From a virus: DNA of 64,000 nt. The translations under genes and the position numbers were made by a program. The stretch spans positions 11,394 to 75,393 of IMG/VR virus record IMGVR_UViG_3300033981_002321; one strand, given 5' to 3'. The stretch's first letter is position 1. Every line of letters starts with the position of its first letter. Positions 2,487 to 9,618 of the stretch are shown piece after piece. The notes beneath the pieces are model-generated. The model made no database searches. It saw nothing but the letters and a program-made list of their open reading frames with translations, and had not been told where the DNA came from.

Positions 2487-2503
2487 ACGGATCATGGCGC
2501 GAC

Positions 2504-2532
2504 TTGACAAAGAAAAGACTGCGTGATAGAAT
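2504..2532 (+). promoter_or_regulatory. Sigma70-type promoter TTGACA-17-TAGAAT with extended -10 TG
   Basis: TTGACA 2504-2509, TAGAAT 2527-2532. Confidence 0.75.
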
Positions 2533-2562
2533 TAGGAGGTCAAGTTTCTTAACTTCTCAAAC

Positions 2563-2811
2563 ATGAAAGGATCTTTGCATTTTACCGGCAGTCAAGACAG
2601 CGAAACATTTATTGGAAAGCTTGTAAATGTGGTAGTTTCCATTAAAAACAAAGGGGAATCGAAAAGAGTTATTTGGCATCAGCCAGTTCGAGATCAGCTC
2701 TGGTGGTTTGGCTTTCAGCCCGAGAAAGGATGCTTTGGGCGCATTCGCTGGTTCAACTCGGACCAAGACGAGGGCTCATGGGGCAGGGTCTTTCTTTCAC
2801 GCAATCCGTGA
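2563..2811 (+). CDS. Hypothetical protein (82 aa)
   Basis: ATG ORF directly downstream of the promoter. Confidence 0.55.
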   Translation: MKGSLHFTGSQDSETFIGKLVNVVVSIKNKGESKRVIWHQPVRDQLWWFGFQPEKGCFGRIRWFNSDQDEGSWGRVFLSRNP

Positions 2812-2822
2812 TAGAATCCCTG

Positions 2823-3215
2823 AGCGACTCAAAGCCCCTACCGGGCCGTAGGCCGCAACAAAGACCTTGCTTCGGCGGCAAGGCGGTTTCCGGGGAGTTT
2901 GCCAGCGTTGCAGCCGGAAAACCTAGTAAATACTGGAAATGGAGACGGATGTTCGCCCGGTGAATTCAAAGTTTGTCATTAGCCATGGCATTTGTTCACC
3001 AACTTCGAGCTACCCGTCTTCGACACAACTCTCTCTTCGGCTCTGACCCCGTGCTAGACGCGGCAGTAGGAATCCCTGGGTTGTGGCTGCCGCTCTGCTA
3101 CCAAGGACGCTTGGTGAAGCATCGGGCATAAGTCCTGCTTCGGCAGGCCAGGGGGCTGATCACCCCTGCCAATCACGGAAAGACCCGAAGCTTCGGCCCT
3201 CGGGTCTTTCTTGTG
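2823..3215 (+). ncRNA. Candidate large structured non-coding RNA (~390 nt)
   Basis: Extended -10 (TGATAGAAT 2809-2817), at least ten stems with G-U pairs and UUCG loops, terminator 3178-3215, and no credible ORF. Confidence 0.65.
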
Positions 3216-3218
3216 TTT
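3178..3218. terminator. Intrinsic (probably bidirectional) terminator
   Basis: GAAAGACCCGA(3178-88)/TCGGGTCTTTC(3200-10) stem followed by TTGTGTTT, between convergent units. Confidence 0.75.
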
Positions 3219-3222
3219 GCAG

Positions 3223-4011
3223 TTATCTAGCTTTTACAGTTTTGCACAGCAATCGATCGATAGGCTCAATTGTTCTTTTTTGCCCCGGACTGAAACCGTG
3301 AGCAGTGGTTTCAAAGTATGCAATTTTCTCATCAAGGAAATCATTGATTACTTGAATTCTCATCCCTCTGCCAAGCTCCTTCTGACTTTTCTTTCTTTCG
3401 AGCAAGACCAAGATCTCTTTCAGTGCCGCTTCTGGCACATCGCATTCGTGCAGCAATTGCGCAAACAGCATAGGCGGGGATTTATGGTACTTCTCGATCC
3501 ACATACAAGCAAGCACGGGGCGGAGAACGTAAAAGTATTTCTTCGTTCTGACCAAATCACTCTTCAGGTACTCCTTGAAGTTCTTTTTGGCCATGTGAAT
3601 ATAATGATACACAGATGCTATCTCTGAAAAGCAAGACTTACTTAGTTTGTACAGCTCTTGATAGAAATCAAGATTAACCTTGTAGATCATTGGGGATCTA
3701 AGCCATTCCATGAGCACTGGATTGCCTTTATTTAGCAAAAACAGAGCTTTTCTAACATCCCAGCCAGAGTAGTCAAATTCATCTACGATCGGATATTCGA
3801 TAACATCTCTGTCTGGTATGACCTTTAGATACCATTCCTCTTTGTGTCTGTAGATAAACCGCACATCGTAATCCGAGTCGGGGGATTCAAAACCCCAGGC
3901 CCTTGAACCAGACTCTGCTGCGTAGAGAATCTCAACAGAATGTTCTTGCTCTATTTCAGATAATCGCGTGATTATCTTAGTGCAGTAATCGGAAGTGTCA
4001 GTTTGAAACAT
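3223..4011 (-). CDS. DNA polymerase beta-superfamily nucleotidyltransferase (RlaP/YcgL-like)
   Basis: ESGSRAWGFESPDSDYDVRFIY (GS...DxD), 'GWDVRKAL.LL.KGNP.L.EWL.SP' and 'KKYFYVLRP.LAC.WI' motifs; start moved to ATG 4011. Confidence 0.9.
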   Translation of the reverse strand: MFQTDTSDYCTKIITRLSEIEQEHSVEILYAAESGSRAWGFESPDSDYDVRFIYRHKEEWYLKVIPDRDVIEYPIVDEFDYSGWDVRKALFLLNKGNPVLMEWLRSPMIYKVNLDFYQELYKLSKSCFSEIASVYHYIHMAKKNFKEYLKSDLVRTKKYFYVLRPVLACMWIEKYHKSPPMLFAQLLHECDVPEAALKEILVLLERKKSQKELGRGMRIQVINDFLDEKIAYFETTAHGFSPGQKRTIEPIDRLLCKTVKAR

Positions 4012-4024
4012 TTTCAAATACTGT

Positions 4025-7000
4025 CTAATAAACGGGAGGCAGGGGATCGCAGCATCGACGCACTTTCCAGTATTCAAATCTGTTAAGTGCAACACGCTCG
4101 TAAACGTGCTGAAGCTCTCCAAAGCGACTAAACTCGGGGACGCAGATCCAGTGTGACGGCGTTACTTTCATGGAAAGACCATCGTACGGGCCACCGATGA
4201 GTGAAACTTCAGCGAACAAATCAGCCTGAGGCATTGTCAAGCAGTGCAGAGATTGCATATACCGGCCAGATGAATGGCCGCAAGAAAGCCAGTGCGATAG
4301 CCTGAGTGGTCAGCTTATCGAGTACCGAGAACAGCATCCACATAGCGAGGCAGCTGCTTCCGTAAAAGTAAACGTTCATTGAATTCCTTAAAGTGTTAGG
4401 GCTAATTTTCTGAAATATCCCATCGCCTGCGACTCCACTCCGCTGTGCTGATCACCTCTATCGCACCATCTCGAAAACGCGATGCGTATGGATCATAAAC
4501 ACTGCGAGAAGCTGGCTCAAGTGTTTGAGGGTCAACGGCAAAGCACATTTTGTCAGGGCTAATTACTTTGATTAGACCCGAATAATCGCCAGCAAACCGT
4601 GTCGTTTGCAATTCTCTTGGATCGGTCATGTTTATTTTGCCTTAGTGGTTAGCGTCTGGCATAATTAAGCGAGGGTGCTCGTGATCATGCCCAGGCACGT
4701 TCACCAAGATGATAAATTCTTTGCCCGCCCCCTCAATCAGCCCAGGCAGATTCCCGCTGTCCCTCCTTTTAATCACATCATCCCAAATCTGGAGAAGAGA
4801 CACACTTTTGTGAACTCTGAACTCACCCTTGTCATAAAACTTGCCACTCTGTTTGAAGTAGGTGAGCTTTACAACTAAAGATTCGTCTACACTTTCTCGC
4901 CCCCACTCAAAACCACGATTAGCCGCTTTGTCAATCAACCACGATTCTCGACCGGCGCCCCCATCTCTATACCGAGGCGCTTCCTCTCGCCACTTTGCTT
5001 TCAGTTCTTCGGATACGATCAGTTGCTCTGTGTTCATTTGTTTGGTTGCTGAAAAACATAGCAAAAACTATGGTCTAAAAAGCTTATGTGGTGTCACATC
5101 AGAAGAAACTGGAAGCCAGTGAGTGTCTTCGTCATAAGGGCAATCCTGCAAACCGAACTCCCAGGCATCTTCTTCTTTGTTCCAGAAACCATAAAGACAG
5201 CGCCCGCGTGCGTCCACGTCATCCGGCCCAGGCTTTTCTTCTGAAAGTGAAACTGGTTTCTTGATTTGAAAAGCAGCAATGCCAAAAGCATCTGTCATCC
5301 GTTGCTCCAGCGTAACGATTCCGCCCTCTGGAACACCACGCCCACTCTCGGGAATAGCGCCATCAGATGCCAATCCCTCTAATGCCTCCAGCCGCTTAAC
5401 TAGAGCAGCAACGATTACAGATTGAGCGCTAATGTGTTTTGCTACTTTCCGCTCCAGCGCAGCGATGCGATCAGCTTGTTGCGGATTCCAGTAACGAGTA
5501 TGCCGCCAAAGCTGACTGGGATCAACCTGTGACCAGTGATAGGTGGCAGCAACATCAAAGTAGGGAGATACTTTCACTTGTATGTCCCCGTGAAGATCAG
5601 CATCGTCCTGCGTGGGGGCGCGACCAGTGATCCATTCGTTAGTTCCGCTCATCGATCAGCCTCCACGCGCAGCTCGACCCACAAAGCATCCCAAGTAGTG
5701 GCCCTAGGCCCAGTGGTGAAGCGATTGAAAGCCGCAGCTTCTTGTGAGGCCTGGAGCCAAAGAATTGGAGAAACAATTGCAAAAACAAGAGCTACCATGC
5801 CAGCGGATACTCCAGCATAAGGCAGTATCTCTTGAAGCATTTCTTTGAACTTGCTCATAAAACACAAACGGAACGTGAGCTGCTCATGAACACTAGCACC
5901 ATTGGTGCCGTTACGCAAGAGGCTTGAGTTGGGGGCGTGGCAAGGCCCACCATGGGGCGAAGTGAGTAAACCAAGTATGGTTAGTTTCGCTTGGTGGCTC
6001 ACCTAGCACCCACTTCGAGCCACCAATTTCAGATATTAACCAGCATCTTCCAAACTCATCCAACTCTTCGGGCTCCGGTCCCCTCTCAGAAAGTGGAATA
6101 GGCCTGAAAAGTGCATCACTAGAAACTCGCGGGTCTTTTGAGACCTGCACCTCCCAATTGATGATGTCGTTTAGAGCTTTCTTTGGATCGTTTTCATTTT
6201 CCTTGTTCAAGAGAAATCTGCAAACCAGAGCATCGTCGATGACTGCACGCCATGGATTGCCTGATTTGTTTTCCAACTCGACCTGAAAAGCAGCAATTGC
6301 GGAACTCAGTTCACTGCTTTTCCAGCCATGCCCAGGCGGTCCTTCGTCACAGGCTACATCCAGTGCCTCGGACAATACCTGCCATTGCTTCGAGGTAAGC
6401 GTGACAACTTGAAACTGTTGATCAATAGTCATAAAATTCATCAATTACTTGACCATCCTTGTCATACACGGCGCCTGTATAGGGATAAATGAAGCGCACG
6501 CTTTCCTCCTTGTCGGGTCCAACCTTGTATTTGTAGATATGATCGCTACTTCCACCGTATCCAATAGAGATTGTGCTTCCATCAGGCAAGGTGCCAGCAT
6601 AAGTGAAAGTGTACTTATAGTAACTTGAAAACTTTACTTTTGCATCGCCGTATTTTTCAATAAATTCTTCTCGTGTCATTGACTTGACCTCGCTTCAAGT
6701 TCGGAGATCGCTTCGAGGGTCCGTGCCCCCCAGCGGCGCAAAGCAGCACGGACGAGAAGGCCGACATCCCCACCCTTGACCCAGAGGCCACAGGGGTGCT
6801 CTGCATGGCCCTGGATGAAGCCGTCGCGGTCTGCCCAGGCCTCTACCTCCTCGTCGCCAGGAATGTCGGTCTCCGGCCCCTGGAGCCATGCCTGAGCAAG
6901 CTCGCGAATCCCCTGCCGCCACTCATCCTCAAGCGGCTCCCCTGCTGCGGCGTGCAGCAAGCGAATGTAGGCTGCGTCTGCGTGCATACACGCCAACATA

Positions 7001-8615
7001 TCATCAATCAAATGATGCGCAGTGTAAATTGCAGTCATTGCTGAGCCTCCAGTTCGCGGGCAGAGAATTGGGCGACAACTGCAGCACCACGGCCGCTTGC
7101 ATGATTAACACAAACTTGACGCGCTTGCCTAATACTTATGTTGGTGTTGACGACATTACATTGCCACCAAAACGGAGACCACCACGGGCGAAACTGCGCC
7201 TCGTAGCCGAGATAAGAATCTCGCACCACGCGGTAACAGGTCGGGGAGAATCTGAGTTTCATTGCTGGGCCTCCCCAGTGCCGTTGCACCGCTCGCACTC
7301 CCGGTAGCTGGTGCCTTTGTGGCGGCACCAACCAGCCCACGTTTTGCCGGTGCCTCTGCAGTTCCAGCACTTGCCGGTTTCCGCTTCGTAGGCGACGGCC
7401 ATTGTCTCAAGTTCGACCTTGGAGATGATTACTCGTTTTCCCGTCCCCGTGAACCGAGGCTCACCTTTGCGCGGCCCTTTGCTGTAGACACCATCGGGGA
7501 CGCTACCGGTAACGATTGAATCGCCATCGCAGTTCTCCCACTTGTAGGCCTTCCATCCTTCAATGCCTGCTTTGACTTCTGCGGCTTCCATTGCGTCTTT
7601 GATGCTGAACTTGTAGTTCATTGCTGGGCCTCCAGTTCGGCGAGATGGGTGAGGGCGGCGCGGATAACAGAGAGCTGCGGTGTGGTTATAGCTGTGAAGT
7701 CGTATTTACCGGCGTCTTCAGGCAGTGATGCCAGCGCCTGCTCCGCCAGCGACGGAGGCCTGGGACGCATGGCGGTGCGAAGATGGTCAACAAGGTGCTC
7801 CCGAAGCTTCGTTTCGTCAATAAAGAGACGACCTACTCCATCAATAATTTCAAAACAGCAGGCATCCAACATGTGATCCGCACGCTCCTGTATCTCAGGC
7901 TCGCGCTGGTCCCAGCCCCATTGAGCTGCGGAATTAAGAGCATCGCGCCACGAATCGACAAGAAGCTCATCATTTCTTGTGTTGAACTTTCGCCAAAGTT
8001 CTTGAGCAAACTCCTGCGGCACTTGAATAGCGTGTGATTTTGACATGGATCTTGAATCAATGGTGTTGGTCATTTGATTTTTGGTTTTGTTTTAGCCAGT
8101 TATGCCTGGCCAGTCGAGAACCGTGGCACTGGCCGCGACCACATATTCTCTTGCCTTCCGGCGTAATAACAGACCCGGACGGATCAACGTAGACCCGCCC
8201 ATCGCCCAGCAGCGCACCATTGACTGTAATTGTGCGCGGCCCCAACACATGAAAGCCTCGCGCAACAAGAAAGGCGTCTATCGCAACCGCGATTTCCTCC
8301 CCCTCAAGCTCAATAGCAACTCCAGGACCGTATTCAGTTGTGCCGCCCCCGTAACCGATTCTCATAGCCAAAAAGAGAGTTTTGGTTTAGTGACAAATTG
8401 CATCATTTGATCTCGGTTTCAGAGGGAAGATTAAGCTTAACAGATGTAACAATTTTCTCCCAACAAGCATCGTCTTTAATCCATTTGGGGCGCTGCATAT
8501 AAAATAGTGGGGCGGTGATACTGCCATCTCGCCCCCATACGCCCCAAGACTTGCAAAGCCCGCTAACTGGGCCAGAAACCTCGTAGTGGCTTGGCTTAAA
8601 AACAAACTCTGTCAT
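4025..8615 (-). other. Leftward cluster of tightly packed small hypothetical genes: 4025-4234, 4221-4379 (membrane), 4402-4629, 4642-5037, 5068-5652, 5649-5858 (TM), 5911-6432, 6422-6679, 6676-7038, 7035-7262, 7259-7621, 7618-8073, 8057-8371, 8403-8615
   Basis: Contiguous same-strand ORFs, many with ATGA stop/start overlaps. 5068 and 5911 share a C-terminal 'P.SLSE..P....D..GRC...THW/F.P' module. Confidence 0.75.
7259..7621 (-). CDS. Hypothetical protein with DnaJ-type zinc finger
   Basis: CWNCRGTG and CERCNGTG (two CxxCxGxG motifs). Confidence 0.7.
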   Translation of the reverse strand: MNYKFSIKDAMEAAEVKAGIEGWKAYKWENCDGDSIVTGSVPDGVYSKGPRKGEPRFTGTGKRVIISKVELETMAVAYEAETGKCWNCRGTGKTWAGWCRHKGTSYRECERCNGTGEAQQ

Positions 8616-8618
8616 AGC

Positions 8619-8987
8619 TCAGTCAGGATCATTGCGAATAAAATCTCTGCACTCAAAAAGATCCCCCGCCTTCCCATCGTGCTCCAAATAAACTCTGAAC
8701 AAGCTGTAGTTACAGTCATATTCTTCATAGTCATAGGAGCTAAGCACTTCACTCCAGGCAACCCAGTAATCTTCATGCTCTGGCCCAGCGCGGCAAATGT
8801 TCCAATCTGCCTGAGGCACGTTATCTATCTTTTCTCGCCCCCGACAAAAAACCTGGGGGACGCAATCCCCATGAGAACCGCTAACAATTAGGGTTTTTTC
8901 ATTGGGGTCTCGATCATCGAGCCAGTATTCTGGTGGATCAAGAGGGCGCGGGTCAGTGATGGTGTCAAGCTGTGCGTTGTAGCTCAT
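8619..8987 (-). CDS. Acidic hypothetical protein, paralog of 18940..19284
   Basis: Shared 'G..VPQVFC...DW.IC..GP.HE.YW..W...DG..DLF'. Confidence 0.75.
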   Translation of the reverse strand: MSYNAQLDTITDPRPLDPPEYWLDDRDPNEKTLIVSGSHGDCVPQVFCRGREKIDNVPQADWNICRAGPEHEDYWVAWSEVLSSYDYEEYDCNYSLFRVYLEHDGKAGDLFECRDFIRNDPD

Positions 8988-9175
8988 TGTTCTTCCTGCT
9001 TGTTACTTTTTGCAGAACCCTTACTTCTCTCCCATTCATTCAAGGCATTTTCGTAAAAATTCAAAGCATCTCGAACTGTTTCCGCTTGTGTTTTGCCAAC
9101 ACGAGAAGCAAGATCGTTCAACGCCTTAAGAAAGGACGAGTCACAGGTGACTTCAAATTTAATCTGATCGGACAC
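8984..9175 (-). CDS. Ribbon-helix-helix (CopG-like) transcription regulator
   Basis: IKFEVTC beta-strand followed by 'LKALNDLASRVGKTQAETVRDALNFYE'; GTG start downstream of its own promoter. Confidence 0.7.
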   Translation of the reverse strand: MSDQIKFEVTCDSSFLKALNDLASRVGKTQAETVRDALNFYENALNEWERSKGSAKSNKQEEQ

Positions 9176-9207
9176 GAGAAACAGGATGACGCAGGCTGTC
9201 AACCTTT

Positions 9208-9236
9208 AGGGTAGCACCGTTGGTGCCTGGCGTCAA
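9208..9236 (-). promoter_or_regulatory. Promoter TTGACG-17-TACCCT with palindromic operator GCAC-N5-GTGC in the spacer
   Basis: Minus strand reads TTGACG ccagGCACcaacgGTGC TACCCT. Confidence 0.55.
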
Positions 9237-9249
9237 CAGAGCAAAGCTG

Positions 9250-9618
9250 TCAGGCATCTGTCTCGGGCATTTCCAGAAGCATTCTGTCAGCAACACGCAG
9301 GCCCATCTCGGAGTCCTCAATCTGACCTTTAAGTATCAGGAGCCTTCGTTTTTGTCTGGCGATGTACGAAATCAACGCCTCTCGCTTTGTTGGATAAGCA
9401 AATCGCTTTCTTGCATCCTTCAGCACAAACTTTTTGCCCATGCAATATGGCTGGCATAGCCAAACACCTTTAGGTGTGTGTCTGATAACTCGATACTCAA
9501 AGCAATCGAGCCTAATGTCATAACCACAAGACTCGCTCCAACTGCTTTCGCGGAATGCAACATAGCGATACCAGTATTCGCCATCGGTGCCAACCGAACG
9601 CCACAAATCAGATGACAT
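9250..9618 (-). CDS. Conserved phage hypothetical protein
   Basis: 'VIRHTPKGVWL...KRFAYPTKREAL.SY..R..R' pattern. Confidence 0.7.
   Translation of the reverse strand: MSSDLWRSVGTDGEYWYRYVAFRESSWSESCGYDIRLDCFEYRVIRHTPKGVWLCQPYCMGKKFVLKDARKRFAYPTKREALISYIARQKRRLLILKGQIEDSEMGLRVADRMLLEMPETDA

Follow-up and report, generated by a model that had tools for sequence, protein, structure and literature searches.

The window analysed here is a 64,000-nt stretch that makes up the right 64 kb of the 75.4-kb IMG/VR virus record IMGVR_UViG_3300033981_002321 (estimated completeness, 94%). Positions 2823-3216 of this window hold a structured, modular, non-coding RNA gene on the + strand, about 394-395 nt long, which belongs to a wider family of phage RNAs. 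The region is intergenic: an open reading frame (ORF) of 82 aa on the + strand ends at 2811, and a gene for an RlaP-family RNA 3′-end nucleotidyltransferase occupies the - strand from 3223. Genes for a terminase, a portal protein, a major head protein, and a 2147-aa tail protein are also found in the window. An initial annotation of the sequence had proposed that an unannotated, structured + strand RNA, equipped with a promoter and a terminator, lies at this position. Our analysis bears this out, and the RNA falls outside every Rfam family.

Boundaries and conservation of the RNA gene

Searches with two flanking proteins and with DNA words located the same RNA in four IMG/VR contigs (L002/L013, L003/L004, L005, and L006), at 81-90% identity. 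L005 and L006 are identical in the RNA, so that there are four distinct close copies including that of the window. Over 2823-3045, identity to the relatives is 91-93%; it falls to 74-81%, with indels, in 3046-3175.

Transcription is predicted to start at A2823 or G2824. The upstream box CGTGATAGAAT (2807-2817, + strand) contains an extended -10 element, TGATAGAAT (2809-2817, with TG at 2809-2810 and TAGAAT at 2812-2817), and overlaps the TGA stop codon of the 82-aa ORF. Exactly two copies of this 11-mer exist in the 64 kb, at 2522 and 2807, which confirms the earlier observation that the RNA shares its extended -10 element with the promoter upstream. The copy at 2522 sits in a near-consensus promoter (2504-2532; TTGACA and TAGAAT separated by 17 nt, with TG). 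Every relative retains the -10 box, even L002 with its unrelated DNA upstream of ATCCGTGATAGAAT, and sequence invariance starts at AGCGACUC, immediately past a variable discriminator. The box at 2807-2817 is a putative promoter.

At the other end, the transcript is predicted to finish in the U-tract past an intrinsic terminator (3177-3218, + strand), which consists of a 12-bp stem (3177-3188/3200-3211) followed by UUGUGUUU. The z-score of the terminator relative to shuffled sequences is -5.14, its stem is kept through one two-sided and four one-sided changes, and the U-tract is present on the + strand only.

The ORFs overlapping the region have about one residue in three altered between relatives (approximately 13 of 38 residues in the frame 2973-3131), and a protein database searched with a relative's corresponding ORF over the RNA returned nothing. 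No overlapping ORF is therefore conserved as a protein or has a counterpart in the protein database, and we regard the region as an RNA gene. In L002, an unrelated DprA-like gene precedes the RNA, and ATCCGTGATAGAAT is the exact point from which homology runs; in L005 and L006, the DNA past the terminator differs. These edges coincide with recombination breakpoints in the relatives and indicate that the -10 box, RNA, and terminator move as one cassette.

The RNA matches no described family. The region was compared by BLASTN with 50,697 phage records and 72,556 plasmids, and no match resulted. Exact-word scans of viral, metagenome, and species-genome sequences, including a gapped two-block pattern, returned only the four relatives or chance matches in coding DNA (from two viral 18-mers, a metagenome 21-mer, and a 19-mer against species genomes), and synteny through the Rep protein and through a 91-aa upstream protein led to no further copy. 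The covariance models of Rfam 15 gave no gathering-score match in the whole window, and in E-value mode the RNA region drew chance-level matches only (psaA RNA, 15.5 bits vs 50). GOLLD, ROOL, OLE, raiA, HEARO, and the other large RNAs of Rfam 15 had no match at or near the gathering score. ARAGORN detected neither a tRNA nor a tmRNA in the window, and no ARAGORN or Rfam model for tRNA, tmRNA, RNase P RNA, group I/II introns, or small ribozymes matched, in agreement with the initial annotation, which had seen no such core.

Fold and modules of the RNA

The alignment was hand-corrected in two registers, and 11 local helices (70 pairs) were scored in the four distinct copies. Pairing is kept in 98.6% of the cells; changes affect both sides in 10 pairs and one side in 11, and a broken cell occurs in only 2 pairs. 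When the alignment was left uncorrected and two mis-registered hairpins were removed, 73 pairs were 99.7% paired, a result matched by 2 of 500 shuffles. The local helices contain 33 G-U cells vs 4 A-C cells, and this excess assigns the RNA to the + strand. The argument for this strand had initially been drawn from G-U pairs and UUCG loops together; the G-U part holds, but conservation does not extend to the UUCG loop of P8. Within the 400 nt of the RNA lie 4 of the 20 CTTCGG words of the window. The minimum free energy of the whole RNA is only moderately low relative to shuffles (z -2.66 on the + strand and -1.41 on the - strand). The folding signal is strong locally, at the terminator and in the P4 arm (2939-3023), where z is -3.88 relative to dinucleotide shuffles; taken by themselves, the 5′ 116 nt are at the chance level (z +0.5).

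The 5′ leader (2823-2864) is nearly invariant and forms one short hairpin, either CCUAC/GUAGG or GCCC/GGGC; the alternative leader hairpins all fit the two variable sites. It is followed by the 7-bp hairpin P2 (2865-2883), which has two two-sided changes, one one-sided change, and no broken pair. The P3 module (2885-2937) comprises a stem (2885-2893/2914-2923) and a 20-nt conserved loop, GGAGUUUGCCAGCGUUGCAG. The stem GGTTTCCGG/CCGGAAAACC described earlier stands in part, its outer three pairs taking two uncompensated changes in L002. CCAGC in the P3 loop (2902-2906) and ACUGG (2933-2937) form a probable pseudoknot. Two long-range helices, 2889-2896/3073-3080 and 2912-2918/3036-3042, also fit the changes seen in the close set, and the latter shows a compensated G-C to A-U change. 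We rejected them because they are energetically disfavoured in three of the four copies, the latter helix at a cost of 8-16 kcal/mol in the three relatives, and because P3 is kept as a stem in three RNAs of other viral contigs (L076, L088, and L093; see below). The P3 loop and its tail recur in those RNAs with different stems, which supports P3 with a local pseudoknot against the long-range alternatives and also argues against a small CUAGU/ACUGG hairpin.

The long interrupted arm P4 (2940-3022) is built from P4a (2940-2948/3014-3022), P4b (2951-2955/3006-3010), P4c (2959-2963/2996-3000), and P4d (2974-2979/2985-2990). It shows one two-sided and three one-sided changes with no broken pair, and its consensus pair probabilities are 0.9-1.0. 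Both this arm and the terminator had been recognised from the single sequence, and both carry compensatory changes in the relatives. The next arm (3024-3085) consists of P5 (3024-3031/3078-3085), an inner helix (3039-3044/3069-3074), and the P6 hairpin (3050-3053/3059-3062). None of its four one-sided changes disrupts pairing, and one C-A cell occurs in the window copy. A short B stem (3090-3125) pairs CCG (3090-3092) with CGG (3123-3125) and UGC (3096-3098) with GCA (3119-3121), and bears the exchangeable hairpin P7 (3100-3105/3110-3115), which has three two-sided changes (ACCAAG/CUUGGU vs ACCGGA/UCCAGU). The P5/P6 arm and the B stem with P7 replace the multiloop of the initial annotation: its closing helix, CCCGTGCT/AGCATCGGG, has inner four pairs that break in relatives, and the enclosed stem GCGGCAG/CTGCCGC keeps only GCG/CGC and loses the remainder.

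The last unit before the terminator is UAAGUCC-P8-P9 (3128-3168), with P8 at 3134-3138/3143-3147 and P9 at 3149-3154/3163-3168. The four close copies differ by two-sided changes in three pairs of P9, whereas the palindromic UGAUCA of the P9 loop (GCUGAUCA) remains invariant while the stem covaries. The earlier stems CCTTGC/GCAAGG (P2), ACCAAG/CTTGGT (P7), CCTGC-UUCG-GCAGG (P8), and CAGGGG/CCCCTG (P9) are thus all kept by compensatory changes. The tetranucleotide GCCA follows P9 in three of the four distinct copies, and L004 has GCAC instead. A T-loop or a CCA minihelix was considered and rejected because the loop positions are unfit and the CCA is not conserved in L004. A CsrB-like sponge was likewise rejected; the RNA has eight GGA words (counted by eye), about as many as expected.

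The three long-range pairings that had been suggested did not survive comparison with the relatives. GGAGTT/AACTCT turns to A-C in three relatives, and no relative keeps AGCCCC/GGGGCT intact, since the covariation of P9 is with its own 3′ strand. The third, GGCCGCAAC/GTTGTGGCT, does not keep its outer pairs, and a competing pairing, CACAACUC/GGGUUGUG, has better support. The consensus fold contains no helix joining the 5′ and 3′ ends and no closing helix, and single-stranded linkers lie between the modules. Because the proposed long-range pairs fail, a closing helix is absent, and parts of the RNA recur separately and in another order elsewhere, the RNA is a chain of separately folding modules and not one global fold.

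A wider family of modular RNAs

L004, L005, and L006 carry a 45-nt insert before the terminator. A 19-mer from this insert occurs in 21 further viral contigs, where less than one chance match is expected as estimated from the size of the collection. Four hairpins, UAAGUCC-P8, P9, P10, and P11, make up the unit shared by these sister RNAs. The tail that follows P11 is paired with the loop of P10, in the variants GGUCC/GGACC, GAUCC/GGAUC, and GAUUC/GAAUC (loop/tail). In 18 distinct sequences of this P8-P11 module, 23 pairs are 95.9% paired with 11 two-sided changes, 3 of which are in the pseudoknot, and none of 500 shuffles reached this level. BLASTN detected the module in no isolated phage or plasmid.

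A covariance model, R1, was built from 16 sister sequences without the clade of the window. Its sole match in the 64 kb is at 3123-3183 on the + strand (31 bits, E 7e-6), where P8 and P9 are matched and P10 and P11 are skipped. The same pattern was obtained in L002 (25 bits), and L004 and L005 scored 95.5 and 92 bits, respectively. In the reverse direction, nhmmer gave E values of 2e-8 to 6e-5 against ten sister loci. P10 and P11 are present in L004, L005, and L006, and the P10 loop word is absent from the window even when three mismatches are allowed. The 3′ end of the window RNA, like that of L002, is therefore a deletion form of the P8-P11 module, which is present in at least 21 further contigs. 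The window RNA has the UAAGUCC linker with the P8 and P9 hairpins and, on the same strand upstream, its own predicted extended -10 element (TGATAGAAT, 2809-2817), and it lacks P10 and P11 with the P10-loop pseudoknot. Of nine sister loci inspected, six have boxes of the form TGnTAnnnT at a distance of 165-235 nt upstream of the P8-P11 module.

Other modules of the window RNA recur as well. The halves of the B stem, CCGCUCUGC and GCAUCGGGCAU, are found at the start of L079-type RNAs with UUU between them in place of P7. In L076, L088, and L093, the P3 loop and the ACUGGAAAUGG tail occur again, their spacing of 29 nt unchanged. The P3 stems there are wholly different (CACUACC/GGUAGUG and CACUGCU/GGCAGUG), the knot is CCGG/CCGG vs CCAG/CUGG, and the long arm opens at AAAUGG as in the window RNA. 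These modules of P3 loop, pseudoknot, and long arm (L076 2925-3057, L093 7397-7529, and L088 781-913, all on the - strand) follow the P8-P11 module in the place of an abiF motif (described below), an order permuted relative to that of the window. Counterparts of the 5′ 260 nt of the window RNA (leader, P2, P4 interior, and P5/P6) are confined to its own five contigs. A weak R1 match was also observed in L044 (292-321, + strand; 20.3 bits, E 0.004), a contig that shares the 91-aa protein; it covers the P11 hairpin alone and may be a lone P11-like module or a chance match. The RNA belongs to an undescribed modular family of uncultured phages that recombine its modules, and these phages are probably cyanobacterial.

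In 9 of 14 scanned sister loci, a motif of the abiF RNA family (RF03085) scores above gathering (46.6-55.7 bits vs a cut-off of 37), approximately 15-85 nt after the P8-P11 module, and tRNA genes often come next. A gene for the Abi_2 toxin is absent from the five sister records searched, one of which is complete. The abiF RNA (RCd22 in C. difficile) is the RNA antitoxin of AbiF/Abi_2 HEPN toxins (PMC12373285), and within the literature searched an abiF match alone has been reported, in cyanophage S-CREM1 (PMC9964418). It resembles the present family as a small structured RNA with its own promoter and forms the last module of the sister RNAs, but the motif is absent from the window RNA, which has no adjacent toxin gene. 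The abiF-ending sister RNAs share with the window RNA the UAAGUCC-P8-P9 unit, an extended -10 element upstream, and a beads-on-a-string build, and with its close relatives the whole P8-P11 module (92-96 bits). The window RNA differs from them in lacking P10, P11, and the abiF hairpin, in ending at a plain terminator instead of tRNA genes, and in its module order. The abiF motifs abut tRNA genes at L075 2194-2309 (-), L078 3761-3872 (+), L079 8056-8210 (+), and L085 2610-2674 (+). Riboswitches of the Glutamine and Glutamine-II types are also present in several of the same sister loci, in one case immediately following a tRNA. Glutamine riboswitches are typical of cyanobacteria and their phages.

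Neighbouring genes and possible role of the RNA

The ORF upstream of the RNA (82 aa, 2563-2811, + strand) would be driven by the predicted promoter at 2504-2532. Its frame and length are kept in eight variants, and its C-terminal half is invariant. The protein is all-beta and of no assigned family, with no match in Pfam or PHROG, and its AlphaFold model is of low confidence (pLDDT 46.6). We considered an RNA-protein particle containing this protein and rejected it because the ORF is absent beside the RNA in L002, the model confidence is low, and the ESM Atlas holds no match. Further upstream (2211-2486), a basic 91-aa protein shows 92% identity between phages that share just 56% in their Rep proteins. 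Another 11 viral contigs encode it (54-82% identity) and are without the RNA, and neither Pfam nor PHROG matched it. In the L002 contig, the gene directly upstream of the RNA encodes a 202-aa DprA/SLOG-like protein (L013 2974-3582, - strand; PF02481, 28.1 bits, just below the cut-off) and stops at the same TGA inside the -10 box.

The RlaP gene (3223-4122, - strand; PF10127, E 4.8e-88) is convergent to the RNA and adjoins it in three of the five contigs (window, L002, and L004). Enzymes of this family extend damaged RNA 3′ ends by one or two nucleotides (PMC12776372). No RlaP gene lies next to the RNA in L005 and L006, and none was found in the flanking DNA examined around 21 sister RNAs. The adjacency is specific to the lineage of the window, and a functional link to the RNA is putative at most; the neighbourhood gives at most a hint of RNA-centred counter-defence functions in this corner of the genome. 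RlaP stands alone among the leftward genes of 3223-9618 (- strand), and scans of those downstream of it with Pfam and PHROGs revealed no RNA ligase, kinase/phosphatase, or any other named function. Among the neighbouring genes scanned, none matched a known toxin family and none encoded Ro60.

As for the host, the nearest isolated relatives of the major head protein are at most 37% identical, so that none is close. The replication protein is most like Cyanobacteriota proteins in the ESM Atlas, which we take as a lead only. The whole window contains 70 copies of GGGGCG and 68 of CGCCCC, its commonest octamer is CTCGCCCC (20 copies), and the cyanobacterial HIP1 word GCGATCGC is absent from it.

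On balance, we favour the explanation that the RNA is a separate modular gene of an undescribed phage family that works in the following way. The host RNA polymerase probably transcribes it from the extended -10 promoter, and the intrinsic terminator would end the transcript. The modules (P2, the P3 loop-pseudoknot, P4, P5/P6, the B stem with P7, P8, P9, and the terminator) would fold independently and be recombined by phages, with the 3′ end of the window RNA as a deletion form of the P8-P9-P10-P11 pseudoknot module. The RNA would act in trans, with its modules as autonomous binding units, because no gene follows downstream on its strand and a search for an antisense target in the phage's own genome was negative (best match 13 nt, E 0.3). 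As its function, we tentatively propose that the RNA may be an abundant decoy or scaffold that binds proteins in trans, directed against RNA-centred defences or regulatory proteins of the host, by analogy with those sister RNAs whose last module is the abiF antitoxin RNA, present there without its toxin. It is less probable, though conceivable, that the modules act separately as decoys or antidotes, each aimed at another RNA-controlled toxin or RNA-binding defence protein of the host.

A working analogy for the family is pseudo-ToxI of phage PhiTE, which is likewise a toxin-less phage non-coding RNA. ToxI-type RNAs are tandem repeats, whereas positions 2700-3300 of the window contain no tandem repeat and no sequence or structural match to them, and mimicry by the window modules is suggested by analogy. 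Pseudo-ToxI reportedly was proposed, by Blower et al. in PLoS Genet in 2012, to neutralise a host abortive-infection nuclease.

Several points weigh against this explanation. The decoy role is argued from analogy only, and no module of the window RNA matches a known antitoxin or protein-binding RNA. The abiF motif is missing from the window RNA, with no match at E<=10 in 2500-3400, and was also not found in its close relatives; its best score in the RNA's own 75-kb genome, at another place, is 10 bits vs the cut-off of 37. The close family consists of only five contigs, several helices depend on few events, and the pairing of the 5′ 60 nt and of the P3 region is ambiguous in the close set. The P3 knot has a single covarying pair, and the homology of the P3 module to L076, L088, and L093 is modest (nhmmer E ~0.002).

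Ranked next after the decoy is a precursor that host RNases would cut into several small stable RNAs, one or more per module, the modules serving RNA processing or a take-over of translation and not the evasion of defence. The beads-on-a-string build with its single-stranded linkers, the exchange of modules as units, and the sister RNAs that run straight into tRNA genes, with which they are probably co-transcribed and processed, are consistent with such a precursor. A parallel would be the small stable RNAs to which phage tRNA clusters give rise. The phage window, however, contains no tRNA gene, and we consider the precursor unlikely; it is compatible with the decoy idea and not exclusive of it. 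We think it very unlikely that the RNA and the convergent RlaP are a functional pair in which the RNA, or its 3′ part of hairpin plus CCA, is a substrate, guide, or regulator. Their adjacency, the GCCA after P9 in most copies, and the one or two nucleotides that RlaP adds to RNA 3′ ends (PMC12776372) would suit such a pair, but the RNA occurs without the enzyme in L005 and L006, the flanks examined of the sister RNAs have no RlaP either, and no isolated phage bearing RlaP has the RNA. In addition, the genes are convergent and not co-transcribed, L004 has GCAC where the others have GCCA, and there is no tRNA-like domain. The last point also separates the RNA from YrlA/Y RNA (RF02553), as do the lack of an Rfam match and of a stem joining the 5′ and 3′ ends, and its convergent orientation to RlaP.

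Still less probable is the large pseudoknotted RNA envisaged in the initial annotation, a new ribozyme or a GOLLD/ROOL-like RNA with a global fold, possibly self-assembling through the UGAUCA loop of P9. The RNA does resemble GOLLD (RF02032) and ROOL (RF03087) in being large, heavily paired, and often phage-borne, with conserved loops able to make RNA-RNA contacts, and GOLLD, ROOL, and OLE assemble by loop contacts (PMC12286853). Its size and pairing density, the invariant loop on a covarying stem, and the compensated change in 2912-2918/3036-3042 point in the same direction. The window RNA is nevertheless half their size or less, modular, and permutable, has no conserved global architecture, and matches neither these models nor any ribozyme in Rfam. 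All three long-range pairings of the initial annotation fail in the relatives, the energetic cost given above disfavours the alternative helix 2912-2918/3036-3042, and no sign of catalysis or assembly is found. Modules that occur alone and permuted elsewhere are hard to fit with an obligatory single fold, and, given about ten loops, one that contains a 6-nt palindrome is not an unusual chance event. We regard as least probable a long structured 3′ untranslated region of the upstream gene that stabilises its mRNA in cis or forms its terminator region. The strong promoter at 2504-2532 could indeed read through the 82-aa ORF, after which no terminator intervenes. Against this, the RNA of L002 follows the unrelated DprA-like gene with homology beginning exactly at the -10 box, modules elsewhere sit behind their own extended -10 boxes, and 390 nt of conserved covarying structure are far beyond what a stabiliser needs.

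Phage non-coding RNAs are far less charted than phage proteins, and the present RNA shows that freshwater, probably cyanobacterial, phages build long RNAs from interchangeable folded modules. Even without a decoy role, the P8-P11 pseudoknot and P3-P4 modules are new and clean candidates for Rfam families and structural study. If the other modules are decoys too, each would be a handle for finding an undescribed host defence or RNA-binding factor. With separate decoys per module, P3-pseudoknot-P4, P5/P6, and P8-P9 would mimic undiscovered regulatory RNAs of the host and would point to RNA-regulated defence systems yet to be found in cyanobacteria, abiF being just the one module that can be named. 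The family would then be the RNA counterpart of the anti-defence islands of phage proteins.

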